Assembly (NCBI GenBank): GCA_050011775.1
Contig: JBEKIL010000003.1
Span: forward strand, 154,224 to 218,223
Direction of reading: 5' to 3'
DNA: 64,000 nucleotides
Origin: Bacteroidota bacterium
Lineage (GTDB): Bacteria; Bacteroidota; Ignavibacteria; UBA10030; CAVZMI01
This document shows positions 4,208-39,916 of the stretch, piece by piece. Below the pieces are notes generated by a model. It had not been told where the DNA came from, made no database searches, and was given only the letters and a program-made list of their open reading frames with translations. Made by a program: the position numbers and the translations under genes. How positions within the stretch are numbered: position 1 is the stretch's first letter; every line of letters starts with the position of its first letter.

Positions 4208-6013
4208 GTGTGTACAACAAGTGATTTTTTCCGGCATTGGATCTTCGGGGGACTTCTTTGCATATTATTCTGTTCGGTTAGCTATGCACAAATTGATACA
4301 GCGCAAGTGAATTCCGGCCGTTCATCGGATTCCCTTCAGTCGGCTACGATCTCGGCGGCGCAAACTTCGGACTCCTTATCGCTACTGGAGAAAATAGTCG
4401 CTTTCAGCGGCGAAATCGGTATGTATGGTGAGTTGTACCATGCGTCCGGGATAGATGATCGCAGACCATCGGCAACTGGAAGACTCTATTTTCAACCGAC
4501 AATTTCATTATTCAAAACCCTTACGATGAATTTCAATCTTCTTCTCTCGACCGAAGGGAGTTCAGCGCGGCAGTCGCTCGATCAGATTGCTATCCATCCC
4601 GAATGGTCATGGGGAAGGGCCGATATCGGCGATTTCAGCAGTTCTTTATCCGATTTTACACTAAATGGAGTTACGATCAGAGGCGGCGGGGTTGAGATAA
4701 ATCCCGGAATATTCCGCTTTGCTGCCATCGGAGGACTCACCCATCGTGCGGTGGAGGGGAACGCCGTCGATGCCGCCTTTGAGCGGGTGATTGCCGCCGG
4801 ACGGATCGGGATCGGCCGAGAAGGAGGGGATTTCTTCGACATTACAGTTCTCCGTGCCCGGGATAATTCGAGTTCGTTGAAAGTTCCCGAGAAACCAGAT
4901 TCTATTCCACATAAGGACAGCACTTCGGTGATCGACTCGCTCTATGCGACGACACAGAACGACCCGTTTCTGACTGTACCGCAGGAAAATCTTGTTGCAG
5001 GGATCAGTACAGGCTTTTCACTTTTCGACGGCGTGTTCACGTTCCGCGGTGAGGCGGCTGGATGTATGTTTACGAGCGATATGAATGCTGCGGAAATCTC
5101 CGATACATCAGCGCTTAAAAACAAGACCGTCTCATCGCTGAAAAATCTCTATACACTGCGCATGAGCACTTCCGCTGACTATGCGCTGAAAACAAGTGTC
5201 GTTCTGGATTTCCAGATCTTCTCGCTTCGCGGGGGATTTACAAGGATCGGCGCAAGTTATACCTCGCTCGGGCTCGCTTCGCAGATCAACGATCGTAAGG
5301 GTTTCGATCTGGGATTCACTACTCAATTGTTAGAGGGGGGAATCTCGCTGAATGCAACATACGATCAATTGTCGGATAATCTTGCCGAACAAAAGCGATT
5401 CACAACGCAGCGATCGACACTCTCGGTCAACCTCGGAGTCCGGCCGACGAATTGGATGTTTACAATGTTAGGCTATGTTGCGAATGGTCTACTGAACGAC
5501 GCATCAAACGATACCATGAAGATTGAAAATACAATGGCATCCTATATGGCTAATCTTTCGTTCCTTATCCCTATAGGGACGGTAGCTAATACGCTGACCC
5601 TGACCGGTTCATTTCAGACATCTGATGATGGAAATATTTTCCGGAAGGATTTTTCTTCCCAGGCGACAACGATGATGGTCAATATTTCGAGTGTGCTGAC
5701 AGAGGATCTGAGTGTGAATCCGTTCGGGGGTGTTACAAGCACACAAATTAGCGGTGAAAAGGATGATATAACGACACTTGGTATCACTATAAATTATCGT
5801 ATGTTTGAAGGAAAATTAAATAATTCATTTACGTTATCCGACGCAAACTCGGCGCAATCAAAAACCCTCAGCGTCACGCTGCAGTCGAGTTATCCAGTCT
5901 GGAATAGTGATACGGTGAATCTTAATGTACGATATTCAGATGTCACTGGATCTGGCGCGGGTGCCAATTTCAACGAAACGCAGGCGGCACTGAGTTATTC
6001 ACATCGGTTTTAA
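4208..6013 (+). CDS. outer-membrane beta-barrel protein (predicted), unknown function
   Basis: Signal peptide ending ...SYAQ. Amphipathic alternating beta-strand pattern throughout. C-terminal ...SYSHRF with terminal Phe, typical of OMP barrels. Confidence 0.6.
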   Translation: MCTTSDFFRHWIFGGLLCILFCSVSYAQIDTAQVNSGRSSDSLQSATISAAQTSDSLSLLEKIVAFSGEIGMYGELYHASGIDDRRPSATGRLYFQPTISLFKTLTMNFNLLLSTEGSSARQSLDQIAIHPEWSWGRADIGDFSSSLSDFTLNGVTIRGGGVEINPGIFRFAAIGGLTHRAVEGNAVDAAFERVIAAGRIGIGREGGDFFDITVLRARDNSSSLKVPEKPDSIPHKDSTSVIDSLYATTQNDPFLTVPQENLVAGISTGFSLFDGVFTFRGEAAGCMFTSDMNAAEISDTSALKNKTVSSLKNLYTLRMSTSADYALKTSVVLDFQIFSLRGGFTRIGASYTSLGLASQINDRKGFDLGFTTQLLEGGISLNATYDQLSDNLAEQKRFTTQRSTLSVNLGVRPTNWMFTMLGYVANGLLNDASNDTMKIENTMASYMANLSFLIPIGTVANTLTLTGSFQTSDDGNIFRKDFSSQATTMMVNISSVLTEDLSVNPFGGVTSTQISGEKDDITTLGITINYRMFEGKLNNSFTLSDANSAQSKTLSVTLQSSYPVWNSDTVNLNVRYSDVTGSGAGANFNETQAALSYSHRF

Positions 6014-10595: not shown

Positions 10596-12575
10596 ATGAA
10601 ATCAATCCGTTACTATGTTGTGCTTTTTCTGGTAATTGATCTGTTGAGCGTTGTGGTTCTTTTCGCTAAACCGCATCCAAAAATAGTTTTTATCTCCAAG
10701 CCGATAACAATTGCACATGTTGGGGTTTTGTACAGTTATGACGCAGAGGCAAAGAGCTCCGATTCGGCTGAAACTATAACGTACAAACTTCTATTCCCAC
10801 CGACTGGAATGACGATCGACAGTGTGTCGGGACTTATTCAATGGACTCCGGTGCACAAGGGGTATTTTTCTGTCATGATTCATGCTCGTGGAGATAGCGG
10901 AGGGTCCGGGAATCAATCGTTTGCAATTCGCGTGCTCGACGCCGTCGGAACAATTTCAGGGCAGGTCGTCGATGCCGTAACGCTACTTCCAATTCCATGT
11001 GTAACTGTCCAGCTATTTCCATCCAGCAAGTATACCATTTTAAGCTTCATTGGAATGCCTGTCTTCGGCTATAGTGGTGTAACCGACGACCTCGGTATGT
11101 ATTCTATCTCGAATATTGATACCGGAGTGTATTATGCCCAGGCCGTCAAGGGATGGCGAATTTCCTGGACACTATTGCCCTGGGATCAATATTTACCGGT
11201 CTGGTGGAAGAACTCTCCTACTATCATCGGAGCGGATCCAATTAACATCGTTCCCGATTCCACGATGACAATCAATTTCCAGATGAGAAAAAGAGTAATA
11301 CCACAGAAGATTACGATATCCGGTACGGTAACCGACAGCAGCGGAAAGCCGATCAAGCATGCATTGGTGATTGTCTCAAAGGTTAAGCCCGAACCCGATG
11401 ATCTCGACGAGAATGATGAAGAATCGGCATCTCCGGCTATGCCCGATCTCGGGGAATCGACATGGGGGAGGATCGAAGACGCGTGTGGAAACGGACTTAC
11501 AGATTCCAACGGGGTCTATTCGGCACAGGTATTCGCCGGATTCACTTATATTGCGTCGGCATACGCAAAGGGGTATGTGATTCAATTTTATAATGGGAAA
11601 GTCAATGTACTCGAAGCGGATCGATTTACACCTGCCAACGACACTACGGGAATTGATTTTTCGCTGACCCCGGTACCAAAGGCGACAAGTCTGATTTCGG
11701 GTTCGGTACAGGACAGCAACGGGCAGGGGGTTGTCTCACGGTTGATTCTATTCCCGGCACGGAAACCGTACATTGGGCCGGGCCGGACTGTAAGCACGGA
11801 CTCGAACGGGAATTTCCAATTTGAAAATCTGTATGATGGGAAATATCTTCTGATGGCGGTTCCTTATAAAGAATATTTACCCGCGTTCTACAAGAAAGAT
11901 GCTTTCGGAGTCTGGAATTGGAAAGAAGCCGATACTATTTCGCTTGCCGGACAGGAAACCGGTCTCATTGTTGGTGTGGTGAAAAAACAAAATCAGGGAG
12001 CCGGTTTTGTGCATGGAAGAGTTCGCACAAAAGACGGAAAGCCTGTTGAAGGAGCGATAGTCTATGCAGTACTTCAGCCGAGCGGGGTGAGGGTAAATTA
12101 TGCTGTGACGGGGGCCGATGGTTCCTATGATCTTGGCGGACTTCCACCGGCTGACTACACGCTGGTAGCCGATAAACCCGAGTTCGTAGCAACAGGGACC
12201 GCACAGGCTGCGATTGATTACATCAACGGCGGAGGTGCAGTTGTTCCTGATATCACGTTTGAAGAACTCACGGCGGTTGAACCCGGTGGTGGATCCGGAA
12301 GTGCGATTCCAACGGTAATTGCATTGTATCAGAATTATCCGAATCCATTCAATCCGTCGACGCATATCCGATATGATCTCCCTCATGATGCACATGTATT
12401 ACTGAAGGTGTTTAACATAATCGGCCAGGAAGTGGCGCTTATTCTCGACGGGAATCAAGTAGCGGGAAGCCATACCATCGAGTTCGATGCATCACAATTG
12501 CCGAGCGGGATATATTTCTGTAGAATGCAGGTTGAGAAATCGGTCATAACAAGAAAAATGATAATAATGAGATAA
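10596..12575 (+). CDS. secreted protein with carboxypeptidase-regulatory-like (Ig-like) repeats and T9SS C-terminal sorting domain
   Basis: Signal peptide. Repeated ...GSVQDSNG / GTVTDSSGKP... beta-sandwich modules. C-terminal YQNYPNPFNPSTHIRYDLP...GIYFCRMQ... matches the T9SS Por-secretion tail. Confidence 0.8.
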   Translation: MKSIRYYVVLFLVIDLLSVVVLFAKPHPKIVFISKPITIAHVGVLYSYDAEAKSSDSAETITYKLLFPPTGMTIDSVSGLIQWTPVHKGYFSVMIHARGDSGGSGNQSFAIRVLDAVGTISGQVVDAVTLLPIPCVTVQLFPSSKYTILSFIGMPVFGYSGVTDDLGMYSISNIDTGVYYAQAVKGWRISWTLLPWDQYLPVWWKNSPTIIGADPINIVPDSTMTINFQMRKRVIPQKITISGTVTDSSGKPIKHALVIVSKVKPEPDDLDENDEESASPAMPDLGESTWGRIEDACGNGLTDSNGVYSAQVFAGFTYIASAYAKGYVIQFYNGKVNVLEADRFTPANDTTGIDFSLTPVPKATSLISGSVQDSNGQGVVSRLILFPARKPYIGPGRTVSTDSNGNFQFENLYDGKYLLMAVPYKEYLPAFYKKDAFGVWNWKEADTISLAGQETGLIVGVVKKQNQGAGFVHGRVRTKDGKPVEGAIVYAVLQPSGVRVNYAVTGADGSYDLGGLPPADYTLVADKPEFVATGTAQAAIDYINGGGAVVPDITFEELTAVEPGGGSGSAIPTVIALYQNYPNPFNPSTHIRYDLPHDAHVLLKVFNIIGQEVALILDGNQVAGSHTIEFDASQLPSGIYFCRMQVEKSVITRKMIIMR

Positions 12576-12825
12576 AAAGAAAACATCAATTTTCCCAACG
12601 GGTCCGCAACCCTACGGGTCAATTTAATTGTCAAATCCCAAGCTGAAGAGGCTGAGCGATATCCGATTCAATAATATCAGCTATCAACACTTGGGATTTG
12701 CTATGTAAATATGTAGTAGCAGAATTCATAAAAAACAATGAAGGATATCTTGCATTAGAAGTGGACACTCGCTACATTATCTTCGATAAAATTCATCTGT
12801 CATCCATAATCATATTTAATTTCCT

Positions 12826-14077: not shown

Positions 14078-15130
14078 TTGTTAGAAGGGTATCATTTCAT
14101 AAGGAAAGCCATGGTCGAATTCGGTACAAGGTCAGTTCGGGCACCTGAGATTTATGGAGATTTCTGGTTCAATTCTGAACCCCTTCCGCTCGGTGCGCTG
14201 CGAGGACAGATTATTCTAATCGATTTTTGGGATTATAGCTCTGTCAACTGTCTTCGGACGATTCCCTATGTAAAAGAATGGTATCACCGATACCACGGTT
14301 ATGGTCTTGTCGTGATTGGTATTCATGCACCGCAGTTTCCTTTCGGACAGCAGCCCGGGAATATCCAGCGTGCTATTGAACGGTTTGGTATTCAGTATCC
14401 TGTGGTCATGGATAATCAGCAGCTTATCTGGGGTCGATTCAGAAATCGATATCTTCCGGCAAAATATCTTATCGATAAAGACGGTTTCATACGCCATGTG
14501 TTTGTCGGTGAGGGAAATTATATCACACTGGAACATTCACTCCAGTCCCTCCTGATCGAAACCGGTTGCTTCGAACCGCTCCCGCTCCCGATGGAGCCGC
14601 TCCGCGATACAGATCGTCCGGATGCTCTCTGTTATCGGGCGACACCGGAACTACAGACCGGATATGTCCATGGATGTCTCGGTAACAGCGAAGGCTATGC
14701 TCCGGAATCTACGGTGGAATATATAGATCAGCATCAATACATTGAAGGACGTTTTTATCTTGAAGGTAAATGGCGGAGTTCGCGTACTGCCGTCGAAATG
14801 CGGGGTGAGAACAGAGAGAAAGGGCACATTATTTTTCCATATACCGCTGCCGAAGTCCATTGTGTCCTCCAGCCGGGTAGTATTAAGAGTATTGTTGAAA
14901 TTTTTCAGGATGAGTTGCCGCTCGATGAGTTGAATCGGGGAAGCGATGTGACGGTGGAGCCCGACCTGTCGAGCATAATCAGAGTCGATGAGCCGCGATC
15001 GTATTGCATCGTAAAAAATAAAGAGTTTGGTCCGCACCGCCTCCGGATTGAAACAACCTCGTCTGGTTTGATGATCCATTCCATTTCATTCATTTCCGCT
15101 GTTATCCCGGAATTAATCCAGGACAACTGA
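14078..15130 (+). CDS. thioredoxin-fold (TlpA/redoxin-like) protein with C-terminal extra domain
   Basis: Redoxin-like core (ILIDFWDYSSVNCLRTIPYVKEW...GLVVIGIHAPQF...KYLIDKDGFIRHVFVGEG). The usual CxxC is SxxC here (SVNC), so a single-Cys variant. Confidence 0.7.
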   Translation: MLEGYHFIRKAMVEFGTRSVRAPEIYGDFWFNSEPLPLGALRGQIILIDFWDYSSVNCLRTIPYVKEWYHRYHGYGLVVIGIHAPQFPFGQQPGNIQRAIERFGIQYPVVMDNQQLIWGRFRNRYLPAKYLIDKDGFIRHVFVGEGNYITLEHSLQSLLIETGCFEPLPLPMEPLRDTDRPDALCYRATPELQTGYVHGCLGNSEGYAPESTVEYIDQHQYIEGRFYLEGKWRSSRTAVEMRGENREKGHIIFPYTAAEVHCVLQPGSIKSIVEIFQDELPLDELNRGSDVTVEPDLSSIIRVDEPRSYCIVKNKEFGPHRLRIETTSSGLMIHSISFISAVIPELIQDN

Positions 15131-15315
15131 TGAAAACCTGTATAGCCGCTCTTTTCGGAAATAGGCATCCGGTTATTCATGCCGCTCTGGTCGGGACTTC
15201 CGGATATAATCTTGCTCCCACTTTATCAAACGTCAGCGGACTGATGGGCGCCTTTGACTTTAACATAGGCGTAAATGAAACTGGAATTGCTTAGAGAACA
15301 TATCGGATACCGAGA

Positions 15316-27073: not shown

Positions 27074-28387
27074 ATGAATTTTAATAAATTTACAATTAAA
27101 GCGCAGGAAGCTGTTCAAAATGCTCAGGAGAATGCAACCAGTTATGGCAGTCAGTCTATAGAGCCGGAGCATCTCCTTGCTGCGCTTATCCAGGATTCGG
27201 CCGGGATTACTGTTCCGATTCTACAGAAGGTCGGAGCCAATGTGAATTATATCAAAATAAAGATCAATGAAGCGATCGAGAAACTTCCCAAGATCTCGGG
27301 TGCAGAGCTTGGGAACCAGTTTGTCTCACAATCGCTCGGGCAGGTATTCGAAACGGCACTCAAAGAAGCGAACCAGCTTAAAGATGAATATGTCAGTACC
27401 GAACATCTGCTTCTTGGACTTATTGAAGAAAAGCAAAATAAAGGAGCAAAACTCCTGATTGATCAGGGAGTCAAAAAAGAAGATATCTATAAAGTCCTTA
27501 AAGAAATCCGCGGCAGTCAGCGTGTGACAGATCAAAATGCTGAAGATAAATATCAGGCATTAGAGAAATTCGGACGCGATCTGAACGATCTTGCCCGACG
27601 CGGCAAGCTCGACCCGGTCATCGGACGTGATGATGAAATCCGAAGGGTCCTTCAGGTTCTTTCACGGCGTACAAAAAATAACCCGGTCCTAATCGGTGAA
27701 CCCGGCGTTGGAAAAACTGCAATCGCCGAAGGAATTGCTCAGAGAATTGTCAACGGCGATGTGCCGGAGTCTTTACGAACCAAGCGGATTGTTGCGCTCG
27801 ATATGGGAACGCTTGTCGCAGGGACGAGCTTTCGTGGACAATTTGAAGAGCGATTGAAAGCCGTGTTGAACGAGGTTATTCAATCCAATGGCGAAATCAT
27901 TTTGTTCATTGATGAACTTCATACGCTCGTAGGTGCCGGGGCCGCACAGGGAGCTGTCGATGCCGCGAATATGCTAAAACCCGCCCTGGCACGCGGTGAT
28001 CTCCGGGCTATAGGCGCCACAACGATCGATGAATATCGGAAGCATATTGAAAAAGATGCGGCTCTGGAACGCCGGTTCCAGCCGGTTCTTGTCGATGAGC
28101 CGACAGTCGAGGATACGATTTCGATCCTGCGGGGTCTAAAGGAACGGTATGAAATCCACCACGGCGTGCGGATTACCGACGGTGCGATTGTCGCGGCGGC
28201 ACAACTGAGCCATCGGTATATCTCGGATCGATTCCTTCCCGATAAAGCGATAGACCTGATCGATGAAGCCGCCTCAAAACTGCGCATTGAAATCGATTCA
28301 ATGCCGGAAGAACTCGATGAAATTGAGAGAAAAATTAAACAATTGGAAATAGAACGTGAAGCGTTGAAACGCGAATTACAGGCATAA
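27074..28387 (+). CDS. clpB: ClpB disaggregase, N-terminal part (N-domain + NBD1 + first half of M-domain)
   Basis: Clp N repeats, Walker [14 protein letters not shown], Walker B ILFIDELH. Ends inside the coiled-coil M-domain (...[14 protein letters not shown]). Confidence 0.9.
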
Positions 28388-28403: not shown

Positions 28404-29762
28404 ATGACTGAATTTACGCAAGAAAAAATGCAGGAAACGACAAAAAAGCGACTCGATGAGATTGAAAAAGAAATTGCCGATCTCAACGAAGTCCGCACTC
28501 AGCTGAAAACACACTGGCAGAATGAGAAGAATCTCATTCAATCTATCCGGACAATGAAATCCGAGATCGAGAAAGCGCGAAATGAGGCTGAAAAGAAAGA
28601 ACGCGAAGGCGATCTAGCAAAGGTCGCCGAACTGCGCTATGGAGTGATTGCTAATCTCGAGAAAAAACTGAAAGCTGCTACCCAGGAGCTCGCAGGAGTT
28701 CAGAAAAATCGGAAAATGTTGAAGGAAGAAGTCGATGCCGAGGACGTTGCAGAGATCGTGGCAAAATGGACCGGTATCCCGGTCAGCCGCATGCTCGAAA
28801 GCGAGCGGTCGAAATTACTGCATCTTGAAGAACGGATACACGAGCGGTTGGTCGATCAGGTCGAGGCAGTCCGGGCGGTGAGCGACGCTGTGCGCCGTGC
28901 ACGAGCGGGATTGCAGGACGAGCGAAGACCGATCGGTTCATTTATTTTCCTTGGCTCGACCGGAGTCGGAAAGACCGAACTCGCCCGCGCACTCGCCGAG
29001 TCGCTCTTCAACGATGAAAATGCAATGGTGCGCATTGATATGAGCGAGTATATGGAGAAATTCTCCGTATCACGTCTCATCGGTGCGCCGCCCGGTTATG
29101 TCGGCTACGAGGAAGGCGGACAGCTTACCGAGTCAGTCCGACGGAAACCATATTCCGTTGTGCTGCTTGATGAAATCGAGAAAGCGCATCCGGAAGTATT
29201 CAACGTGCTTCTTCAAGTACTTGATGAAGGCCGGTTGACCGACAGCAAAGGGCGAACGGTTAATTTCCGGAATACTATCATCATCATGACCTCGAACCTC
29301 GGATCGAATATCATCATGGAGTGGACGCAGAACATGACCGATGTAAACCGCAATGAGGTCATGGAGGCTGTCAGGGTTAAACTATTCGACCTGCTTAAGC
29401 AGACAATTCGTCCGGAGTTCCTTAATCGTGTCGATGAAATCATCATGTTCAAAACCCTTACACGCGACGATATAGTTCAGATTGTCGATTTACAGCTCCG
29501 TCATGTGCAGGTATTGGTGAAAGCAAAGAATATCACGCTCAATTTCACCGATTCGGCAAAAACGTGGCTGGCAAAGGCGGGATACGATTTGCAGTTTGGC
29601 GCCCGTCCGCTTAAACGGATAATTCAAAAACATGTTGTGAATAAATTATCTGAAAAAATTCTTGCCGGAGAAATTGCCGAAGGGAATATGATCTCTGTCG
29701 ACGTCGGCACGGATGGATCGTTTCGATTTATTCCTGTCGTCAAAGTTAAGGATGTTCAATAA
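28404..29762 (+). CDS. clpB: ClpB disaggregase, C-terminal part (second half of M-domain + NBD2 + C-terminal domain)
   Basis: Continues the ClpB alignment exactly where the upstream ORF stops (...[10 protein letters not shown]... ; NBD2 Walker [16 protein letters not shown], Walker [12 protein letters not shown], sensor/arginine region). It is in the +1 frame relative to the first part and is preceded by GAGGA-n3-ATG. Confidence 0.9.
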
Positions 29763-30855: not shown

Positions 30856-32112
30856 TTAGTTCGACACGAAAGTCGTCGCACTCGATGAATCAAGAGTAAC
30901 GGTAAAACTACCGTTTGATAAAGTAATATCACTTCCCTGTACACAATTCTTACTACTTGATGTGACATAGGGCGTAAACGTCGTGACTGTCCCGTTCTGG
31001 ATCGTAAATGTTTGATCGATTGAAGATGAATTTCGGTTCAAAACGACGATAACCACCTTGGAGCCGTTTTTATATGCAGTTACATCAACATTTGTCTGAG
31101 GGCTGGCTGTGGCACTTACCCTATAGTATCCCGGACGAACGAATCTGGCGTATTGCGACATGACATAACCTCGTTTGGTTACATTTCCTTTAGTACCTCC
31201 TCTTTCACCATCATCGATCGGTCCGTAGAAGCGAACAATATACCACCAGATATACGCATTCATACTCGCATTCATACAATCATTAATTTGTTTGCCTGTG
31301 GCAAGAACATGAGACCAAGTAGTAATAGTATCAAGATATTCGGTCATCCATAAATCTTTCCCTTTGCTCATAGCTAGGGGATAACTCATTAGCCCTCCTC
31401 CGTACAGATGACCACCGACAATGGAAAGGTTCGCAGCGGCAACAGGATCATTCAATATCGCATCTGTAATGGTGTGGCTGAAATTCATTGACTCATCTGC
31501 GATGATATTGATTCCGATAGAGGGCACATTGTTCTTCACAAAGTTAACCATTTGTGTTGCATTCCAATAGCAGGACTCATAGGTGACCGTTACATCGGGT
31601 TCGTTTTGAACGGATACAGCATACAACAGAACACCGTTGCTCGACATATAATCGCCAAACGCTTTCAGATGCGCCGCATAGGCTGCATAAGAATCAGTCT
31701 TGAGTTCGCCTCCAACGATATTATTGTTGGTCTTCATCGAAGCAGGTGGAGTCCAGGGAGAAGCTATGATTGTCACTCCCTGAGCATGTGCTAACTGAGC
31801 AGTAGCAACCTGAATGGCGAACTGAGATGTGTCAGGCGGTACGCGCAGGCGAAGTATGGTGAAACCTAATTGTCCTGCTCCGGTACCAAAAGCCGTGTTG
31901 ATTTGATCAACAGTCATATCAGGACGCCAGGGAAGTATGTTCGCAGCACCAAAGCCCCTTATCACCTGGTGGGTATTAGCTAAATCAACGGAGGCAGTCC
32001 CCGATTCATCTGAAGGTCCGTTAATTGTGTCTTTCTTTGAACAACCTGCCGCCATCAAAGCAAATAATAGTATAAGGCTTAATAAATTGTTTCTTATCAT
32101 ATTAAGGCACAT
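30856..32112 (-). CDS. secreted glycoside hydrolase family 30 (glucuronoxylanase XynC-like)
   Basis: Signal peptide/lipobox (LMAAGCSK). GH30 TIM-barrel signatures (IRGFGAANI...FTILRLRV...YAVSVQNEPD...WMTEY) and C-terminal beta-sandwich. Confidence 0.78.
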   Translation of the reverse strand: MCLNMIRNNLLSLILLFALMAAGCSKKDTINGPSDESGTASVDLANTHQVIRGFGAANILPWRPDMTVDQINTAFGTGAGQLGFTILRLRVPPDTSQFAIQVATAQLAHAQGVTIIASPWTPPASMKTNNNIVGGELKTDSYAAYAAHLKAFGDYMSSNGVLLYAVSVQNEPDVTVTYESCYWNATQMVNFVKNNVPSIGINIIADESMNFSHTITDAILNDPVAAANLSIVGGHLYGGGLMSYPLAMSKGKDLWMTEYLDTITTWSHVLATGKQINDCMNASMNAYIWWYIVRFYGPIDDGERGGTKGNVTKRGYVMSQYARFVRPGYYRVSATASPQTNVDVTAYKNGSKVVIVVLNRNSSSIDQTFTIQNGTVTTFTPYVTSSSKNCVQGSDITLSNGSFTVTLDSSSATTFVSN

Positions 32113-32499: not shown

Positions 32500-33735
32500 T
32501 TAGTTCAACACGAAAGTCGTCACACTAGATGAATCAAGAGTAACGGTAAAACTACCGTTTGGTACGGCAATATCACTTCCCTGTGCACAATTCTTAGTAC
32601 TTGATGTGATATAGGGCGTAAACGTCATATATGGTGGCCCGTTCCAGATCGTAAATGTTTGATCGGTTGAAGATGAATTTCTGTTTAAAGCAACGATGAC
32701 CACCTTGGAGCCTTTTTTATATGCAGTGACATCGACATTTGTCTGAGGGCTGGCTGTAGCACTTACCCTATAGAATCCCGGACGAACGAATTTAGCATAT
32801 TGAGACATTACATAACCTCGTTTGGTGACGTTACTGTTGTCGTCGATCAGGCCGTAAAACCTTCTGATATACCACCAGACATAAGCGTTCATATCCGCAT
32901 TCATACAATCATTAATTTCTTTGGCTGTTCCGAGAACAGCAGTCCATGTTCTGGCAGTATCACAATGTTCGGTCATCCACACCTCTTTACCTTTGCTGAT
33001 GGCCAGAGGATAACTTGTGAGCCCTCCTCCGTAAATGTGTCCGCCGATGATGGATACGTTAGCGGCGGCGACAGGATCGTTGAGTATAGGGTCGGAAAAT
33101 GCATGATCGAAATTTCCCACTTCGGGTACGATGATTCTGGTGCCGATTGTCTGCACATTATTTTTGACAAACTTGAGCAATTGTGATGGGGTCCAAACGC
33201 AGGTTTCATATGTTGCCGAGTAATCTGGTTCGTTCTGAACCGATACGGCATATAAAGGAACGCCGTTGTTTGACATATAATCGGCGAAAGATTTTAAATG
33301 GGCCGCATAAGCGGCATAATAATTAGTATCGAGAGCGCCGCCTGCGATATTATTGTTTGTTTTCATTGAAGCCGGAGGTGTCCAGGGTGATGCAAATATT
33401 ATTGCTCCGAGCGATTTTGCCAGCAGTGCAGTGGGAACTTCCAGATTAAATTCCATCGAATCGTAAGAGACGCGAATGCGCAGTATGGTCAGACCAATTT
33501 GACCGGTCCCGGTGCCAAAAGCCTTCTGTACTTGATCAGAAGTCAAATCGGGAATCCACCCAGGCATGTTTACACCGCCAAAACCCCTGATAAGCTGTTG
33601 AGGGACGTTTAAATCAATAGTCGCTACGCCCGGTATTTCTGATGGTCCGGTGGGAGATGGGCAACAACCTGCCGCCATCAAAGTAAATACTAATATAAGG
33701 CTTAATAAATTGTTTCTTATCATATTAAGACACAT
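32500..33735 (-). CDS. secreted glycoside hydrolase family 30 (glucuronoxylanase XynC-like), paralog
   Basis: Same GH30 motifs as 30856..32112, ~75-80% aa identity by eye. Confidence 0.78.
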   Translation of the reverse strand: MCLNMIRNNLLSLILVFTLMAAGCCPSPTGPSEIPGVATIDLNVPQQLIRGFGGVNMPGWIPDLTSDQVQKAFGTGTGQIGLTILRIRVSYDSMEFNLEVPTALLAKSLGAIIFASPWTPPASMKTNNNIAGGALDTNYYAAYAAHLKSFADYMSNNGVPLYAVSVQNEPDYSATYETCVWTPSQLLKFVKNNVQTIGTRIIVPEVGNFDHAFSDPILNDPVAAANVSIIGGHIYGGGLTSYPLAISKGKEVWMTEHCDTARTWTAVLGTAKEINDCMNADMNAYVWWYIRRFYGLIDDNSNVTKRGYVMSQYAKFVRPGFYRVSATASPQTNVDVTAYKKGSKVVIVALNRNSSSTDQTFTIWNGPPYMTFTPYITSSTKNCAQGSDIAVPNGSFTVTLDSSSVTTFVLN

Positions 33736-33947
33736 GACTTTACCCTTTCATTTGATTTATTTTTTCAAAATACCTGATCATCTGCTCTTCGGATAAATTT
33801 GTAATACATCTGCATTCGCCATGTCAAATGTACACAATTACTGTGTGCTTTTCAACGTGGCGCTTATTTGGTTTAAACTTGTTGAACGTTTTGTGTGAAA
33901 TTACGTATTATTTGCGGGGAGCGGCGAGTTAGTCAGCTAACGAGCTT

Positions 33948-34409
33948 TTAGATTGCTATAACATGCCAACCACTTTTCTGAAGTTCTGCAAGCATCTCAC
34001 CGGTATACATAACAGTTATACCAAGCTGTGTAAGTCTGTCAGAGACACCATAAAGATCTGCACAAGCCTTACATGCATATAATTCAACACCTACTTGCTT
34101 AAGATCTTTTAATTTCTCTTGCAGCACGGTATCCTCGGCTAACAATTTTGACGATGGACCCCAAACAAGTAATCTAACATTGTCCATCCATGAATTCTTC
34201 TTGCAGTAATAGGCATACATAAACACCATTTTGAGAGCAACTTCTCGATCCCCACTTGTCCATAGAATTAATTGCTGTTGTTTGATCGTTGAAATTGCTT
34301 TTATTGAATCATTTCCTGAGGACGATTCCACTTTCATTAAATTCTGACAAAGAAGCAAACCGCCAAGTATGAGATTTGCTATGATGAAAAATATTGTAAA
34401 CCTTTTCAT
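33948..34409 (-). CDS. DsrE/DsrF-like family protein (secreted)
   Basis: Signal peptide. C-terminal ...LLVWGPSSKLLAEDTVLQEKLKDLKQVGVELYACKACADLYGV...ITVMYTGEMLAELQKSGWHVIAI resembles the DsrE/DsrF/TusD fold, with conserved Cys in ACKAC. Confidence 0.4.
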   Translation of the reverse strand: MKRFTIFFIIANLILGGLLLCQNLMKVESSSGNDSIKAISTIKQQQLILWTSGDREVALKMVFMYAYYCKKNSWMDNVRLLVWGPSSKLLAEDTVLQEKLKDLKQVGVELYACKACADLYGVSDRLTQLGITVMYTGEMLAELQKSGWHVIAI

Positions 34410-34474
34410 GTTGTTCCTTTCGTTTATTTATATAGTTGTTAGTGGATTAACGGATAACCGCTCCGCCTACGTAA

Positions 34475-34657
34475 ATAACACTCTGTCAGGCAGGTAATAA
34501 CATAAAATGTACCACTGCCAACGAGCTTGGACGTATTGTCTATGCTATGCTCAAAAACCACACTGAATATCAAGACCTTGGCGAACTCTACTACGAACAA
34601 CACTACTTCCACACACTCCTAATCATGAGTTAATTAGGAGGCGGCTATAATTCTTTA
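34475..34657 (+). mobile_element. remnant: ~53-codon C-terminal fragment resembling an IS110-family transposase, plus downstream palindrome
   Basis: Open frame ...ANELGRIVYAMLKNHTEYQDLGELYYEQHYFHTLLIMS* resembles the conserved C-terminal tail of IS110-family transposases (..ARKLARIIWAMLK..TEY..). Followed by CCTAAT-catgagtta-ATTAGG. A second, more degraded copy lies at 37855..37968. Confidence 0.3.
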
Positions 34658-35097
34658 AGAAACTCGTCTGGAGTCAGACCAAAATAGGATGCTTTTTCTA
34701 CAATTACTGTAAAAAATAATTCATCGTGTCCTCGACCATCAAATGTTGGACCATATTTAGCAAATAGTGCTTTGCCTTCTTCTGTCGGCTGATGTACCAT
34801 CTTAATTTGATATTCGTGTAACATTTCATGAACAAGTTCAGTTTGATGAATATACCAGCCAAGCTTGCTCATTGGATGACAATGACCTTGAATTTGGTTC
34901 TCAAAATCTTCAAGATTGCCATCGGCTATGAATATATATAGACAATCTTCGGAAGGGCGATAAAATGTAGTTGACATGCTAAACTCAATTTTAAGTGTGG
35001 CCTTCTTCAAATTGGCATCTGTGGGATACCAATCTTTCCAGAGACGATCATATTCACTTCTCAAAATTGATACAATTTCTGATTTAGTAATAGACAT
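34645..35097 (-). CDS. small HExxHxxQ zincin-like protein (DUF4157/SprT-like metallopeptidase motif), unknown function
   Basis: 150-aa ORF containing ELVHEMLHEYQ (HExxHxxQ). Low-GC cassette. Translationally coupled to the upstream gene (4-bp spacing after its stop). Confidence 0.55.
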   Translation of the reverse strand: MSITKSEIVSILRSEYDRLWKDWYPTDANLKKATLKIEFSMSTTFYRPSEDCLYIFIADGNLEDFENQIQGHCHPMSKLGWYIHQTELVHEMLHEYQIKMVHQPTEEGKALFAKYGPTFDGRGHDELFFTVIVEKASYFGLTPDEFLKEL

Positions 35098-35123
35098 ATT
35101 GATAGCCGCCTAAGGGACCGGAG

Positions 35124-35591
35124 TTAGACCGCACCGATCAACTTTGCCATTTGACTGCGAATTATACTCGATGTGAAGAATATATTGACGGAATAAATCT
35201 GGAACCTTCTAATTTCGTAGAGTATGATGTTTCCTTCTTTCGTATCCCAAATATATTTATTTGAAAACAACGGGTGTTCGCTGTATTTGCCAATCTCGCT
35301 GTTAACGAAGGCTAGAGTTGTCTGCAAAACCATCTTGGCGAGGGTCTTATTCCAGTCATCAAACTGTAAACTGATCTTATATATCTGTCCGTTAGTAGAT
35401 GCAATCATCGTTGAATCCCAGTGGGTGGCAGCAAATTGCACATTGATTCCGTTGAAAAACCTTTCGTTCTCTAAGACTCGTTTCATTCCAGCAAACTCAG
35501 CGGACAGATAATCCTCCTCTGAAAATTCCTTTAATCCTTCAGCCGTGTTGATTTGCTGCGTCAAATAATAGGGGCCAACCGTCAGTATCAT
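35124..35591 (-). CDS. hypothetical protein (155 aa), low-GC cassette
   Basis: Coding-like ORF with no recognisable motif. Its 3' end overlaps the repeated motif CCGCCTAAGGGACCGGAGTTAGACCGCA. Confidence 0.5.
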   Translation of the reverse strand: MILTVGPYYLTQQINTAEGLKEFSEEDYLSAEFAGMKRVLENERFFNGINVQFAATHWDSTMIASTNGQIYKISLQFDDWNKTLAKMVLQTTLAFVNSEIGKYSEHPLFSNKYIWDTKEGNIILYEIRRFQIYSVNIFFTSSIIRSQMAKLIGAV

Positions 35592-35837
35592 AAAATTGCT
35601 TCCGTCGAATGTGCGCCGTGCGGCCTACAGACGGTGATTAGACTGCTGCACTGAAAACTAGCAAATTGTACTATCCGTGCCAAGCCGATAAAATTGAGCC
35701 TCGTCGAAGACGGGTTCATTCGCTGTACTCTCAATTCTTAACTACACCTATACTCGTCATTAATTTACCGCTAAGATCATTGCATCATCTTGATGCGCTG
35801 GTTAGGGGCGGTGTATATTATACCAAAATTATTTTTT

Positions 35838-36029
35838 CTATTTGCTAGAATTTGAATCTCTATCTTGTAAAGATTCCAAAAGTTTGATTACTTCTTGAGT
35901 ACGATGGGCAGGATCATTGTTATTAGCTTTTTTCGAAATACCAAGAAGTCGTTCTGAGGCTTCATTGAGTACTTGCTCACGCCTCGAAGCTTGGCAATCT
36001 GAGTTACTGTTTTTTGGTTCGTTTTTCAT
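35838..36029 (-). CDS. small hydrophilic protein (63 aa from MKNEPKN...), uncertain
   Basis: Short ORF overlapping the 3' end of the 337-aa membrane protein gene. Charged, low complexity. Could be non-coding. Confidence 0.22.
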   Translation of the reverse strand: MKNEPKNSNSDCQASRREQVLNEASERLLGISKKANNNDPAHRTQEVIKLLESLQDRDSNSSK

Positions 36030-37017
36030 TTTTATTTCCTTGAATATTAAGGATATAAAGAACATAAATAAGTTGTGACATTATAAAGAGTTCGTCAATA
36101 CGAAGTTCAGTAAAAACACTTTCTTTACCTGTATAGTCAACAGTGATCGCACCGATATTTGGCACGTCGCTTTGGCTACATGGAACGGGTACTGCAATAA
36201 AGGATTTATACCTACTACTCTTTCGTTTCAAGTAAGGAGCATTGAATTTTTTATCCTTTGGATAAATAAGAGGCCGGCCAGTGAGGATTGCTTGGCCTAC
36301 GAAACTATTATTCACATCAAAACCGCGCATACTATGAGAAGTCCAATCTCTATTGTTTATAGCAATCATATATTCTAATCTATCACCTTTTTGTTCAAAG
36401 AATGCCATGCGAAATTGTTGAAGCTCAGGGCTATCACCAAATGAATACTGTAGAAGAAGCCTTCCAGCAGCATCAACGCTGTCCTTGAAATGTTGCACAC
36501 TATGCTGATGACATCGGATCTCGGATACTAAGGTCTTATGCATGAGACTTAGCACATTAATATGTTTTTCTAAATCTCGAATTCTATTTGCTGCTACCAA
36601 ATCAGGTTGTGCAGTTACATAACGATAAAGGCCGTTACCTAAGATTGTAAAGGCACGACGGGCGGCTTTGCCAAAGGCTTCTGGATCATTAATACGCTTA
36701 TTTCTTAGGAAGTTTGCTGTGAACACAATAATAGTACTTAAAAATAGAGATGAGATAAACACTATAAGAGCAATGTTAAGACCATACAATATTGGCGTAA
36801 AAAGTTTTGCTCCATCAAGAAACTGCTTAACTGCAGCAACCTTGTCACCAGTGAATGATGTAAGACTACCACTCACAGTTGTAATGATTCCACCAATGGT
36901 AAATTTAGATTTCCAATCGGAAAGGGCAAGTGTGAAGCCAAAAATTAAGCCGCATAAAATAGTTGCTACTGCAATTAGATGATTTGGATGAATTGCAGAT
37001 AGAATACTATTATCCAT
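36004..37017 (-). CDS. membrane protein: 3 predicted N-terminal TM helices + cytoplasmic GAF-like domain
   Basis: Hydrophobic segments LIAVATILCGLIFGFTLAL / IGGIITTVSGSL / ILYGLNIALIVFISSLFLSTIIVFTANFL. C-terminal ~170 aa with GAF-like pattern (FVGQAILTGRPLIYPKD ... KSFIAVPVPCSQSDVPNIGAITVDY ... ELFIMSQLI). AAAGGA RBS. Confidence 0.6.
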   Translation of the reverse strand: MDNSILSAIHPNHLIAVATILCGLIFGFTLALSDWKSKFTIGGIITTVSGSLTSFTGDKVAAVKQFLDGAKLFTPILYGLNIALIVFISSLFLSTIIVFTANFLRNKRINDPEAFGKAARRAFTILGNGLYRYVTAQPDLVAANRIRDLEKHINVLSLMHKTLVSEIRCHQHSVQHFKDSVDAAGRLLLQYSFGDSPELQQFRMAFFEQKGDRLEYMIAINNRDWTSHSMRGFDVNNSFVGQAILTGRPLIYPKDKKFNAPYLKRKSSRYKSFIAVPVPCSQSDVPNIGAITVDYTGKESVFTELRIDELFIMSQLIYVLYILNIQGNKNEKRTKKQ

Positions 37018-37043
37018 AACGTTTTATTCCTTTACCGCGCCGC

Positions 37044-37727
37044 CTAACGAACCGGAGTTAAGCTACGGCAACCTGCCTGTCTACCCCGACATGCTTTTAA
37101 TCGTGGAGCGGCGGATTGTTCAGTACTGCAAAGTGACCTAGATGTCTTCTCCAGTTTCTTGTTGATGGATTGGAGACAGGTCGTGATCTTCTTTTGCGCT
37201 GCATCTTGATGATCAATAACTTTATGATACATGTTTTGTCTCAACGCTGGATCCATAACTGCTTGAGGGAAGATTCTGACCTGAATGTATTTATCTAGAA
37301 TAAATTGGTAATTATTGATTGTTGTATACGTTGAGGAGAGAACGCCCAACAGATCGGGATCGTTTAGCCATTGCAACTCTCCGCCGTCAGAAAAAGCCTT
37401 CCAGGATTCTACCCGCACAAGGTATAGTTTGTTATCGAGACTATCACTGAACTGACCGATAGAATCATAATTTTCTTTTAATTCTGCTTGAAGAACTGTG
37501 AGTATCTTCCTTACTCTTTCGGCAGATTCTTTTTTCTTCTCCTTTTCGTTTCTGGATCGAACAATGCGATCTATCCAAAGGGCGATTGGCAGGCCGATTC
37601 CGATACCAACAATCGTTGCAAATAGATTTGCAAGAAAATTTGAATAGAAAGGCTGATCCAAAATGTGGGATTCCTTTGCGCTGCTTAATATAGTTATTAT
37701 CTGGCCACCATCCATTTCGTAACACAA
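37044..37727 (-). CDS. membrane-anchored protein (single TM + coiled-coil region), unknown function
   Basis: TM LFATIVGIGIGLPIALWI, then a Lys/Glu-rich helix and a ~150-aa soluble region. 3' end overlaps repeat motif CCGCCTAACGAACCGGAGTTAAGCTACGGCA. True start may be an internal Met. Confidence 0.5.
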   Translation of the reverse strand: MCYEMDGGQIITILSSAKESHILDQPFYSNFLANLFATIVGIGIGLPIALWIDRIVRSRNEKEKKKESAERVRKILTVLQAELKENYDSIGQFSDSLDNKLYLVRVESWKAFSDGGELQWLNDPDLLGVLSSTYTTINNYQFILDKYIQVRIFPQAVMDPALRQNMYHKVIDHQDAAQKKITTCLQSINKKLEKTSRSLCSTEQSAAPRLKACRGRQAGCRSLTPVR

Positions 37728-37854
37728 CTAGTGGCGGCCCATTCCCGCCCCTTTATCACTCTTCGTTTATACTAAAAGGGGAACTTTAGCTACAAATATA
37801 CAGCAGCTAAACCACCAGAGCAATAGCAGAAAATTGCAAAATCGGAGCTGCTTG

Positions 37855-37968
37855 AAAACGACCGGACTTTCAAACGACTCAAGCATAAAGCAGCTGATCT
37901 CGGGTTCCAACTTGTTCCTCTGGCAACTCCCACTCACTCCTACTCATGAGTTACCTAGGAGGAGGTTT
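37855..37968 (+). mobile_element. second, degraded copy of the IS110-like C-terminal fragment plus TAACTCATGAGTTA palindrome
   Basis: ...TFKRLKHKAADLGFQLVPLATPTHSYS* aligns with copy 1 (...DLGELYYEQHYFHTLLIMS*). Downstream is the perfect 14-bp palindrome TAACTCATGAGTTA and CCTAGGAGGAGG. Confidence 0.25.
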
Positions 37969-38448
37969 TTACGGTTTATATTTGTCGACGAGAGAATCTT
38001 TAAACGCAACAAGCGAATCTAATCCCATAGGCCAACAAGATTTATCACATCGGTAAACACCGGCAATATTCAATGTGTCAGTAATATTATCTTCTTTGAT
38101 AACAATTATCAGGGCTTGCGCACCTACACACAAAGAGGATCCAGTGGGATCGGGTGCTCCGACCAACTTATTATTATTGATGAGTGAAATCATATGATTA
38201 TATTCTTGACTTTGTATCTTGGCAGACCAAGAACTTATCGTAACGCCATTTTGAGATGATACAAAGATTATGTCTTCCTGATCCACAGTAACTAAAGTTG
38301 ATACAGGTTGAGGAACAACAGCACCTTTGTCAAGAAAACTAACGTATGAGGTTGATTTAACCGGCTCAGTAGGCTCAGACTTTTTGCAGCTTCCTAAAAC
38401 AACAACCAAAGATAAAAAGATTGTAATTGAAAATATTCTGTTATACAT
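37969..38448 (-). CDS. lipoprotein, unknown function
   Basis: Signal peptide + lipobox (LVVVLGSC). 159 aa, no motif. Confidence 0.55.
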   Translation of the reverse strand: MYNRIFSITIFLSLVVVLGSCKKSEPTEPVKSTSYVSFLDKGAVVPQPVSTLVTVDQEDIIFVSSQNGVTISSWSAKIQSQEYNHMISLINNNKLVGAPDPTGSSLCVGAQALIIVIKEDNITDTLNIAGVYRCDKSCWPMGLDSLVAFKDSLVDKYKP

Positions 38449-38914
38449 ACAAAACTCCTTACTTACTGGAGTAAAAACCGCCTAACCTATGATTAGGTCG
38501 ACTCAGTCGACCTTAGATTCTGAAATACTGTGGAGTATTTAACGCTCCATTCTTAAAAAGCCGATGCGTTTTCCGGATGAACCTGGAGGAAAAAGTATAA
38601 CGCTTTTATCGGCAAGTTTACCGTATGATAACAATTATTAACGAAATGTCAAATATCCTTTGCCGATAAAATAAAAATCCTCTGGGACTCTTTGAGTCAT
38701 ATGGGTCAATACCTTTAAATAATATATCCGGTTGAAGAAAAATGAATGCAGAATGAATGGCCACGACCTTCAGGTCGTGGATTTTCAAATCTAAAAAGTC
38801 TCGGCGGGCTTTAGCCCTATATCAATTTAATGTGGGGTTAAAACCCCTCATTTTTCTCCTCTTATTTCCCACGAGCTAAAGCTCGTGGCAATAGAGTTTT
38901 TCAGACGTCTCGAA

Positions 38915-39916
38915 TCATTTGTTTTGTATAGTGAGCGAACGAACAATCGACTCTATGTGCCGCTCATCCGTGCCACAGCATCCTCCGAGTATTTTGAGTG
39001 AAAAATCTTTATGAAGCGATGCCATCATTTCGCCAAATCTGTCCGGATTTTCCACGTCGAGCTCTTCCCGGCCGTCGAGTTCTTCCGGACTTCTGAGCGA
39101 TGTGTTCGCCTGAAGTCCAAGGATTCTACATCGCACTTCTCGATCTTGATCTTGACCTCGACCTATTATCGCTTTCCTAAATATTTCCGGATGAACACAA
39201 TTGATCATATATCCTGTAGGCTTAGGTGATACTGTTGTATCGATATTGTTAATCGCATCCGGGAGAAGCATACCGTCAAGGAGTCTACAATTTGCACGAA
39301 TGACAAAGCTCAGTATATACGGACATCCCGAATCGGCCATTGCCTGTGCCATTCCAAGTGCTTCGCTGAAAGCCGGAAGTGTCGACCCTAAAAGAAAATC
39401 AACGCCGGACGACGCAAGTGCACGAACCTGCTCCCGGTGAAAAAAACGTGCTGTCCCGGAAGGTAACGCCTCTTCGGGTTTATACGCATCACCATAACAG
39501 CCCATGAGTCCGCCGATAAATATTTTTTTGGCATATTCACCATAACCGGCTCGTATTTCTGCAAGGAAATCGTAACAATCCTTATTTACATCATGGGCAC
39601 GCCCACCGACGTTCTTTGAACTCTGGTGGGCAGGTAACCCTGCCCGCGAGATTCGTTCGGGATTTGCACGCCAGGTAGGAGTGAGAATGATCATCGGAAG
39701 ATTTCTGCGATATGCACAGTCGATGTATTGACGATAGATTGCTTCAAGATATTTCTTTCCTTCATTATATAATAGAGCGGAATTGAGCAGGTGAGGGTTA
39801 AGGGAAATTCCGGGTGTTCTTCGCAGCCGTTCGATGACGGCTCCCTCGGCGATGATCACCGGTTCTTGCTCAATACAAAGAAGAAATGTTGACATGTGAC
39901 TGGTGTGGAAATACAA
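38915..39916 (-). CDS. homocysteine S-methyltransferase-family protein (zinc-dependent Hcy-binding domain)
   Basis: Hcy-binding domain signatures including ...MINCVHP... and GGCCGTDERHI zinc-ligand motifs. Its last ~135 bp are duplicated at 30541-30675. Confidence 0.82.
   Translation of the reverse strand: MYFHTSHMSTFLLCIEQEPVIIAEGAVIERLRRTPGISLNPHLLNSALLYNEGKKYLEAIYRQYIDCAYRRNLPMIILTPTWRANPERISRAGLPAHQSSKNVGGRAHDVNKDCYDFLAEIRAGYGEYAKKIFIGGLMGCYGDAYKPEEALPSGTARFFHREQVRALASSGVDFLLGSTLPAFSEALGMAQAMADSGCPYILSFVIRANCRLLDGMLLPDAINNIDTTVSPKPTGYMINCVHPEIFRKAIIGRGQDQDREVRCRILGLQANTSLRSPEELDGREELDVENPDRFGEMMASLHKDFSLKILGGCCGTDERHIESIVRSLTIQNK

Follow-up and report, generated by a model that had tools for sequence, protein, structure and literature searches.

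A candidate integron-like gene cassette array in a variable slot downstream of the homocysteine methyltransferase gene of an Ignavibacteriota bacterium

The DNA analysed here, a 64-kb stretch of contig JBEKIL010000003.1 from a bacterium of the Ignavibacteriota lineage (the window), contains a low-GC island at 33872-38482 with small genes that are all encoded on the minus strand. The flank genes are housekeeping genes and comprise those for a homocysteine S-methyltransferase (HcyMT), an isoaspartyl peptidase/asparaginase, RsmB, two GH30 paralogues, an outer membrane protein (OMP) and ClpB. An earlier note on this DNA had regarded, by eye, the stretch 34410-38915 as AT-richer than its surroundings, and computation bears this out. 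Its GC content is 39.4% and that of the island is 39.2%, against a mean of 45.9% (standard deviation (sd) 0.97%, minimum 43.1%) when the 64 kb are cut into non-overlapping windows of equal size. The island is thus the lowest stretch of the 64 kb, about 6.9 sd below the mean. GC at third codon positions (GC3) deviates as well, being 0.26-0.30 in most island genes versus 0.41-0.54 in flank genes, and one island gene, that of the 155-amino-acid (aa) protein, differs from its neighbours with a GC3 of 0.51. The open reading frames (ORFs) of the island, including all co-oriented minus-strand ORFs listed in the earlier note, are the following (TM = transmembrane):

33948-34409, minus strand: DsrE/YedF-like exported protein, 153 aa (Pfam DsrE, E 2.4e-7)
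34645-35097, minus strand: HExxH protein, 150 aa
35124-35591, minus strand: soluble protein, 155 aa
35838-36029, minus strand: small ORF, 63 aa, overlapping the end of the 337-aa GAF gene
36004-37017, minus strand: TM-GAF protein, 337 aa
37044-37727, minus strand: single-TM protein, 227 aa (223 aa from ATG, 37044-37715)
37969-38448, minus strand: lipoprotein, 159 aa

None of the listed island genes matched a housekeeping family, in agreement with the earlier description. Searches of the island proteins against Pfam, NCBIfam, PADLOC and PHROGs gave nothing significant beyond the DsrE match and a sub-threshold GAF match, Rfam gave nothing relevant on 30-42 kb, and tRNA genes are not present. Two points of that description had to be given up. 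The flanks that were scanned contain no insertion sequence or transposase remnants, and the DsrE-like gene at 33948-34409, which had been taken as flank, is variable between strains and belongs to the island.

Outside the island, the window is closely similar to L020, a 21-kb locus of the Ignavibacteriota metagenome-assembled genome CAVZMI010000023.1, a GTDB genome. The two are 94.6-95% identical over 49344-38931 and 97% identical over 33871-30585. Between the HcyMT and GH30 genes, the 4.6 kb of the window are replaced in L020 by 6.5 kb with eight different co-oriented ORFs, which encode proteins of 237, 156, 184 and 348 aa, two lipoproteins, an OMP-like protein and a 306-aa protein. The GC content of this L020 array is 0.387 versus 0.459. 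Gene content therefore differs completely between near-identical strains, and the variable parts have short repeats alone in common. Identity stops precisely at G|TTAG (...CCTAATCATAR GTTAG); at the other end, the DsrE-like gene is missing from this position in L020 and the 97% homology restarts at window position 33871. Low GC, together with different genes in a strain with 95-97% identical flanks, marks the island as accessory and recently exchanged DNA, and horizontal acquisition, as proposed earlier, is upheld. Two more distant relatives, L032 and L033 (HcyMT protein about 64-67% identical), also carry arrays of small, strictly co-oriented ORFs directly after HcyMT, with products that include Glyoxalase_2, OsmC, an OMP beta-barrel and DUF362. 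The array occupies a conserved hotspot just downstream of HcyMT in the Ignavibacteriota lineage. A search of the JGI metagenomes for the locus, based on HcyMT, returned relatives at no more than 67% identity and no further alleles.

The repeats in these arrays are placed at the junctions between genes. Sites of the attC type were judged at the level of motifs on the gene-sense strand, which is the minus strand in the window. With the crossover placed at G|TT, the island divides into six candidate cassettes (C1-C6) of 0.5-1.4 kb:

37911-38485, minus strand: C1, lipoprotein ORF with a RepB-type site at 37927-37962
37048-37910, minus strand: C2, 223-aa single-TM helical protein; the GTTAGGC core at the following junction includes its TAG stop
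35628-37047, minus strand: C3, TM-GAF gene, overlapping 63-aa ORF and a long junction at 35816-35628
35114-35627, minus strand: C4, 155-aa soluble protein
34451-35113, minus strand: C5, HExxH mini-zincin, with a RepB-type 5' site at 34606-34641 and the 3' module GGAGCGGTTATCCG|TTAATCC at 34483-34444
33872-34450, minus strand: C6, DsrE/YedF-like protein with a partial site at 33941-33878; right end of the variable region

A 22-mer, TAACTCCGGTnnnTTAGGCGGC, is found at 37060-37039 and 35126-35105. A second element of about 36-53 nucleotides (nt), RepB (CCTCCTAnnTAACTCATGAnTAGGAGTG...), stands immediately 3' of two stop codons (37962-37927 and 34641-34606) and is found again after other cassettes in the four genomes. 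A RepB pattern scan of IMG/VR yielded 59 single chance matches, none of which extends to the full repeat. The junction repeats occur in the arrays of all four genomes; they are found neither in the remainder of the window nor in the other loci examined. An exact GTTAGGC lies 16-41 nt 5' of the first ORF in 7 of 25 cassettes from the four genomes (about 0.04 GTTRRRY are expected per 80 nt), and this enrichment is confined to the sense strand. The window has exact copies at 38486-38480 and 37048-37042 and degenerate cores at 35114 (CTTAGGC), 34451 (GTTAATC) and 37911 (GTTGGAA); GTTAGAA and GTTAGTT are further junction variants. Inverse cores of the RYYYAAC type lie at or near stop codons (GCTTAAC 37063, GTCTAAC 35129, CCCTAAC 35804, AATTAAC 34633 and GACTAAC 33930).

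Furthermore, cassettes often begin with 10-15 nt that are complementary to the stretch directly after their own last stop codon, as in TTAGGCGGTTTTTAC/GTAAAAACCTCC, TTAGGCGGCTAT/ATAGCCGCC and TTAGAACGCACC/GTTGCGTTCTAA. In permutation tests of own versus cross-cassette pairing, p was 0.0017 for 13 cassettes and 0.005 for 24 cassettes, and the arms covary (GGCGGC/GCCGCC vs GGCAGC/GCTGCC; GAACGCA/TGCGTTC). In C1, the start (38485-38471) is complementary to the sequence at the stop codon (37972-), and this own inverted repeat is rank 1 of 24 in both row and column. The start of C3, TTAGGCGGCGCGG, opposes the R''-like CACCGCCCCTAAC at 35813-35796. In C4, the arm at the start, TAGGCCGCAC (35627-35618), has its complement, GTGCGGTCTAAC, at the stop codon (35134-35123), and the cassette ends in GTCTAACTCCGGTCC C|TTAGGCGGC (35129-35105). 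The start of C2, TTGGAACCC, is also present at an L032 cassette junction, and the 5' half-site of C6, CTGACTAACTCGCCGCTCCCCGC, is found again at L020 15030-15083 and at window 32306-32248.

Two further repeats were seen at junctions. Several long junctions contain an element conserved over about 75 nt, AATTAATGRCG…TAGGT…TTGAGAG…GTAGTACAWT, which lies at 35765-35690 in the window, at about 12515-12590 and 13195-13265 in L020 and at about 8230-8260 in L033; it could be a cassette-internal promoter or the signature of a repeat family. The other is palindromic (GCGACTACCGCC…GGCGGTAGTCGC followed by ACCCTTTTAGGGTGCG; L032 4300-4500 and 6120-6200, L033 6660-6750) and may represent another attC family in the arrays.

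Upstream of C1, two elements precede the array:

38625-38652, minus strand: promoter-like TTGACA-16 nt-TATCAT, TG-extended and directed into the array; a candidate Pc-like cassette promoter
38478-38514, minus strand: first recombination-type site, with the hairpin AAGGTCGAC-TGA-GTCGACCT, then AATCATAG|GTTAGGCGG, and CCTAA...TTAGG inverted boxes

The promoter-like sequence is the best sigma-70-type match in 33700-39000 (11/12) and is invariant in the window, L020, L032 and L033, notwithstanding an HcyMT identity of only 64-67%. The first site (AAGGTCGAC-TGA-GTCGACCTAATCATAG|GTTAGG) is common to three of the four genomes, including L032. Its hairpin has a folding z of -3.55, and the L020 stem carries a compensatory C>T/G>A change. 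A conserved promoter and a conserved attI-like first site therefore precede the array, in which a cassette consists of an ORF or an ORF pair and a repeat-bearing junction. Between promoter and first site lies a leader of about 110 nt (38515-38624, minus strand) that is conserved in the four genomes (L020 11095-11195; L032 about 1590-1650; L033 about 5560-5660) and contains CATCCGGAAAACGCATCGGCTTTTT and a GGAGC…GCTCC hairpin, with no match in Rfam; it may be an attenuator, a small RNA or a translation element. The roughly 260 nt that separate the promoter from the HcyMT stop codon (38653-38914, minus strand) are specific to the window and missing in L020; they contain two alike hairpins, CCACGAGCTTTAGCTCGTGG and CCACGACCTGAAGGTCGTGG, which resemble a small repeat of the repetitive extragenic palindromic (REP) type.

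For comparison with a class 1 integron, the sequence of plasmid R100/In2 (L094) was read directly. The attI1 end of R100, GTCGCCCTAAAACAAAG|TTAAAC, matches the first site of the window, GTCGACCTAATCATAG|GTTAGGC, in 15 of 23 bases with equal box spacing. The 3' site of C2, GCTTAACTCCGGTTCGTTAGGCGGC (37063-37039), has the L' box GCTTAACTC (9/9) and GTTAG in common with attC(aadA1) of R100, whose L'-R' half reads GCTTAACTC-AAGC-GTTAGAT as compared with GCTTAACTC-CGGTTC-GTTAGGC (37063-37042) in the window. In both sites, the R'' core begins directly at a stop codon. However, the 5' halves of the window sites fail to align with the GTCTAAC-AATTC-GTTCAAGC arrangement of attC(aadA1), and unlike the class 1 integron, the window has no adjacent intI1-like gene and comes from another phylum.

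Integrons have been reported in Ignavibacteriae, and an attC cluster that lacks an integron integrase is termed a CALIN (PMC9024848; Cury 2016, Néron 2022). By the usual definitions, a CALIN has at least two attC sites less than 4 kb apart and a complete integron has intI no more than about 4 kb from the array. An attC site is built from R and L boxes with a conserved AAC/GTT triplet (PMC5027507), and cassettes with their own inverted repeats and cores, such as those described above, have the look expected of integron cassettes that can circularise (PMC5027507). Since no integrase was found in the window or in L020, a complete integron is not present and the locus is at best of the CALIN type. 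We therefore read the low-GC stretch as an integron cassette array of the CALIN type, made up of about six independent cassettes and including the DsrE-like gene, and put the probability of this reading at about 65%. In several respects, the array is like sedentary chromosomal integrons and CALINs. It consists of co-oriented small ORFs mostly of unassigned function with GTTRRRY and RYYYAAC repeats, in low-GC cassettes of 0.5-1.4 kb with strain-variable content, downstream of a promoter and with no integrase nearby. Unlike in typical CALINs, canonical attC hairpins with unpaired central spacer, extrahelical bases and variable terminal structure are not demonstrated here, several junctions are far outside the usual attC length of 57-141 nt, and an attI-like simple site and promoter stand without intI at a position conserved across genomes with HcyMT about 64-67% identical.

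An integrase-less platform that is conserved across a family-level clade and is still turning over would imply an integrase acting in trans. Most likely, cassettes would be inserted, and excised as circles, by a tyrosine recombinase of the integron type whose gene lies elsewhere in the genome. The crossover would be at G|TT of the GTTRRRY core, and in an excised circle the 3' end ...G would be joined to the cassette's own TTAGGCGG.... The cassettes would be transcribed from the upstream promoter TTGACA-16-TATCAT, and their genes would function independently, without cooperation.

Several observations weigh against an integron-type array. Neither the 64-kb window nor the 21-kb locus of L020 gave a tyrosine recombinase or integrase in searches with motif regular expressions and with tblastn (IntI1 and XerC queries). 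Only about 10 of 24 cassettes have an own-cassette inverted repeat that is clear. Most candidate sites, on both strands, fold no better than shuffles (z mostly -1.6 to +1, with weak end pairing in the long ones), and canonical attC structure is accordingly not claimed; a few sites fold with end pairing, such as 35765-35822 in the window (z -2.55) and 15912-16020 in L020 (z -2.3). An L''/L' pairing with two bulged A can be drawn by eye for 37105-37055, and the L boxes and extrahelical bases are proposed by eye only. Several junctions have an atypical length, either about 185-235 nt (these share the internal 75-nt element) or as little as about 25 nt. No clean site closes the array on the right, where it runs into a half-site before the GH30 genes. 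Finally, Rfam, which has no attC family, gave no match at the candidate sites, and the junction module TAGGCGKAGCGRYYATCCRTTA had 0 exact matches in the JGI metagenomes.

Part of this evidence would also fit a variable islet of another kind, in which the interval between HcyMT and GH30 is swapped by homologous recombination via its flanks, e.g. after transformation, and the junction repeats are terminators or elements similar to REP sequences or miniature inverted-repeat transposable elements, with no role in recombination. The lack of an integrase within 64 kb, the candidate sites without significant folding and the right boundary without a clean core site agree with such an islet, and RepB, the 75-nt element and the GCGACTACCGCC palindromes resemble intergenic repeats of the REP type. 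However, the repeats are confined to the arrays and absent from about 80 kb of flanking DNA of the four genomes, and all ORFs are strictly co-oriented. Flank-mediated exchange also leaves unexplained why homology breaks exactly at G|TTAG, why GTTAGGC is enriched on the sense strand alone, why cassette-specific inverted repeats covary and why the sites are similar to real attI1 and attC(aadA1). We therefore consider this alternative rather unlikely.

Within the candidate array, the TM-GAF gene and the small ORF of C3 form the only genuine conserved multi-gene unit. Across 9 other contigs, the sole conserved neighbour of the GAF gene is a 60-71-aa ORF that follows directly downstream and overlaps it (L002-L010, L093 and the contig of P0002, the closest GAF homologue at 72% identity, whose neighbourhood was read from gene calls). 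The small partner proteins align, with R17, R43 and L54 invariant. In the AlphaFold2 model of the 337-aa protein (mean pLDDT 73; mostly 73-92 over residues 141-330, with two lower blocks), N-terminal hydrophobic helices (12-35 and 70-104) are followed by a helical linker (114-192) and a C-terminal alpha/beta domain. Structure prediction and fold matches bear out the GAF fold of this domain, and with it the earlier proposal of a membrane-anchored GAF protein without recognisable output domain. The Pfam GAF profiles PF01590 and PF13185 remain below their gathering thresholds (18.1 bits vs 22.4 and 17.0 vs 28.6), one GAF homologue has a weak precomputed PF13185 match, and the PDB sequence profile recovers a generic GAF stretch only (3oov, E 0.027). 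Among the fold matches, structures of free methionine-(R)-sulfoxide reductases (fRMsr) rank high, and ordinary sensor GAF domains do likewise. Compared with GAF sensors such as the stand-alone GAF/fRMsr proteins 4mmn, 1vhm and 3mmh, the PtsP GAF domain 3trc and the GAF domain of a Geobacter membrane protein (2qyb), TM-GAF is an isolated family, since a profile search gives 20 representatives and no link to other GAF families. It also differs in having no kinase, cyclase, phosphodiesterase or DNA-binding output, and in having a membrane anchor and an obligatory small ORF. The family is small (14 clusters in 5.8e9 proteins; 20 representatives in 1.84e9), and its full-length members, of about 300-370 aa, have one common architecture. 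Invariant positions line a GAF pocket (W225, H228, Y252-P253, Y270-K-S-F, P279-C280 and D294-Y295). TM-GAF is thus predicted to consist of a membrane anchor of 2-3 helices, a linker and a cytoplasmic GAF domain, and to be translationally coupled to a small helical protein. The model suggests a membrane-anchored sensor that is probably dimeric. Our best guess is a ligand-sensing membrane protein, with the membrane domain or the small partner as output.

By sequence inspection, hosts of the GAF pair range from AT-rich to GC-rich. Of six sequence-resolved contexts other than that of the window, one has a known defence system next to the pair, a D12 methylase and EcoRV-like restriction-modification pair. 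The others have a protein sorted by the type IX secretion system (T9SS) and MacB; Ddl, a tRNA gene and an MMPL transporter; an iteron-like array and DUF1508; or DUF4440 as neighbours. The iteron-like array (L010 2600-3130) consists of at least 10 copies of the palindrome GCCTATCGGATAGGC with a spacing of about 45-60 nt, upstream of a GC-rich homologue of the GAF pair and beside the DUF1508 gene, an arrangement suggestive of descent from a plasmid or phage or of an array for regulator binding. In L002 (12400-12957), degenerate short repeats (…GGnnAGATAC/GATAGC…, GAAGTTG/GATGATG) extend downstream of the GAF pair to the contig end. In the ENA contig L093, the pair follows a DUF4440 lipoprotein gene and GCNTAACAACC motifs precede both (130-170 and 850-870); one of these motifs lies in a 33-nt palindrome, GCATAACAACCGTGGCCACGGTGGATGTTAAAC, whose ends are of the RYYYAAC and GTTRRRY types, which hints at a cassette-like setting of the pair there.

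Potentially, the GAF protein and the small ORF could be a self-contained system of toxin-antitoxin-like, anti-phage or holin/antiholin-like type, in which the GAF domain gates a membrane-damaging N-terminus. Holin T of phage T4 is controlled by the antiholin RI. By analogy, the GAF pocket could sense a small molecule or a partner and so gate permeabilisation by the N-terminal helices. As in type II toxin-antitoxin systems, the two genes overlap and are co-conserved; neither protein matches a toxin or antitoxin family. We regard this alternative as unlikely. PADLOC and PHROGs gave no match, searches of IMG/VR, INPHARED phages and PLSDB plasmids did not recover the family, the remaining resolved contexts (T9SS/MacB, Ddl/tRNA/MMPL, iteron-like/DUF1508 and DUF4440) are not related to defence, and the match to holin T ranks far below ordinary GAF domains. 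The combined proposal, an undescribed self-contained membrane-acting GAF pair (of anti-phage, abortive-infection or toxin-antitoxin-like type) in an integron-type cassette together with an integrase-less platform serviced in trans, is likewise doubtful.

The 150-aa protein of C5 contains an HExxH motif that is invariant in its family, and its model has a zincin fold. The family comprises 6 clusters in 5.8e9 proteins, with the invariant residues E95 and H124 as candidates for the third metal ligand. The earlier note had assigned its HExxHxxQ motif to DUF4157/zincin-like domains; as a mini-zincin the protein stands by predicted fold, and DUF4157 is not matched, nor is any other Pfam or NCBIfam family. 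It can be compared with minimal zincins such as SprT/Spartan, Wss1 and the minigluzincins (projannalysin, proabylysin and selecase), from which it differs in lacking a Pfam or NCBIfam match and in having candidates only for the third metal ligand. Homologues occur alone in three unrelated contexts, at a Bil system on an element bearing a type IV secretion system (T4SS), after a PLD/UDG/NTP_transf_8 cluster and near a DUF433 gene. They are never accompanied by the 155-aa ORF, which the earlier note had taken as a translationally coupled partner and which is not a conserved one. In the first context (L011 252-3260), the homologue lies about 550 nt downstream of the Bil (ubiquitin-like conjugation) system (Prok-JAB; BilD E 6e-164) and next to a full set of T4SS conjugation genes, from which an integrative or conjugative element is the implied setting. 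For the remaining cassette proteins, one TM segment was found in the 223-aa protein and a signal peptide with a lipobox (LGSC) in the 159-aa protein, as the earlier note had described. The lipoprotein, the 223-aa and the 155-aa proteins have no homologues in the loci of GAF or HExxH homologues.

Taken together, it is very improbable that the six genes make up a single, horizontally acquired module with cooperating parts for membrane sensing or abortive-infection defence, as the earlier note had suggested: they are co-oriented, tightly spaced, low in GC and without matches to housekeeping families, and one GAF-pair homologue lies beside restriction-modification genes and one HExxH homologue beside a Bil system, but no two genes except GAF and the small ORF co-occur in homologous loci, recombination-site-like junctions separate the genes, GC3 differs among them, PADLOC gives no significant match and the slot of the sister strain L020 holds eight unrelated genes. 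This lack of co-conservation largely refutes a joint module, and with the repeats between the genes it indicates that the architecture of metallopeptidase, GAF protein and membrane partner arose from juxtaposed independent cassettes. The earlier statement that the genes match no catalogued defence system is confirmed by PADLOC, in which the best match among the six proteins was a partial CARF of 14 bits (E 0.0039). Likewise, neither the island nor the homologous loci contain a cyclase. Similar to the TM effectors of Pycsar and of CBASS (anti-phage signalling systems that are based on cyclic oligonucleotides), TM-GAF has a domain of a small-molecule-binding type fused to TM helices and no enzymatic output. 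In contrast to these, no cyclase or nucleotidyltransferase adjoins it here or in homologous loci, its domain is GAF and not SAVED or cNMP-binding, and PADLOC finds no match. A pairing of a CapP/IrrE-like peptidase with a GAF regulator was rejected as well, the HExxH and GAF genes being in different cassettes and never co-conserved.

At the right flank of the array, two tandem GH30 (glucuronoxylanase-like) lipoprotein paralogues with about 76% DNA identity are encoded on the minus strand (30856-32112 and 32500-33735). Each is preceded by one and the same partial junction repeat (…TAAC-nnGCC-GCTCCCCGCAAAYAATACG…TTTCACACAAAACGTTCAACAAG; 32306-32248 and 33941-33878), which in L020 belongs to a full junction (15024-15152). 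Since L032 has no GH30 gene between the array and OMP/ClpB, the GH30 genes may be late additions to the array region. Further on, ClpB appears split into two plus-strand ORFs, one with Clp_N, AAA and lid (437 aa, 27074-28387) and one with AAA_2 and ClpB_D2-small (452 aa, 28404-29762). The boundary of the 452-aa C-terminal gene is equal in L032 (7627-8985 and 9001-9981), and the split therefore looks conserved and not like an assembly error.

If our reading holds, the array is of a known kind, an integron cassette array of the CALIN type, and a newly found example in Ignavibacteriota. It would then be a clear, active-looking chromosomal cassette array in a phylum in which integrons are barely described. 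The genes would have to be studied as six separate cassettes and not as one operon. Sedentary integron cassettes have lately turned out to be rich in compact systems against phages (bioRxiv 10.1101/2024.07.02.601686), and the pair of TM-GAF and small protein as well as the orphan mini-zincin are therefore reasonable candidates for single-cassette screens. The array carries two rare orphan families, the horizontally spread TM-GAF pair and the mini-zincin. CALINs are usually regarded as decaying remnants. A conserved promoter and attI-like entry without a neighbouring integrase would bear on whether such clusters are dead remnants or platforms serviced in trans.

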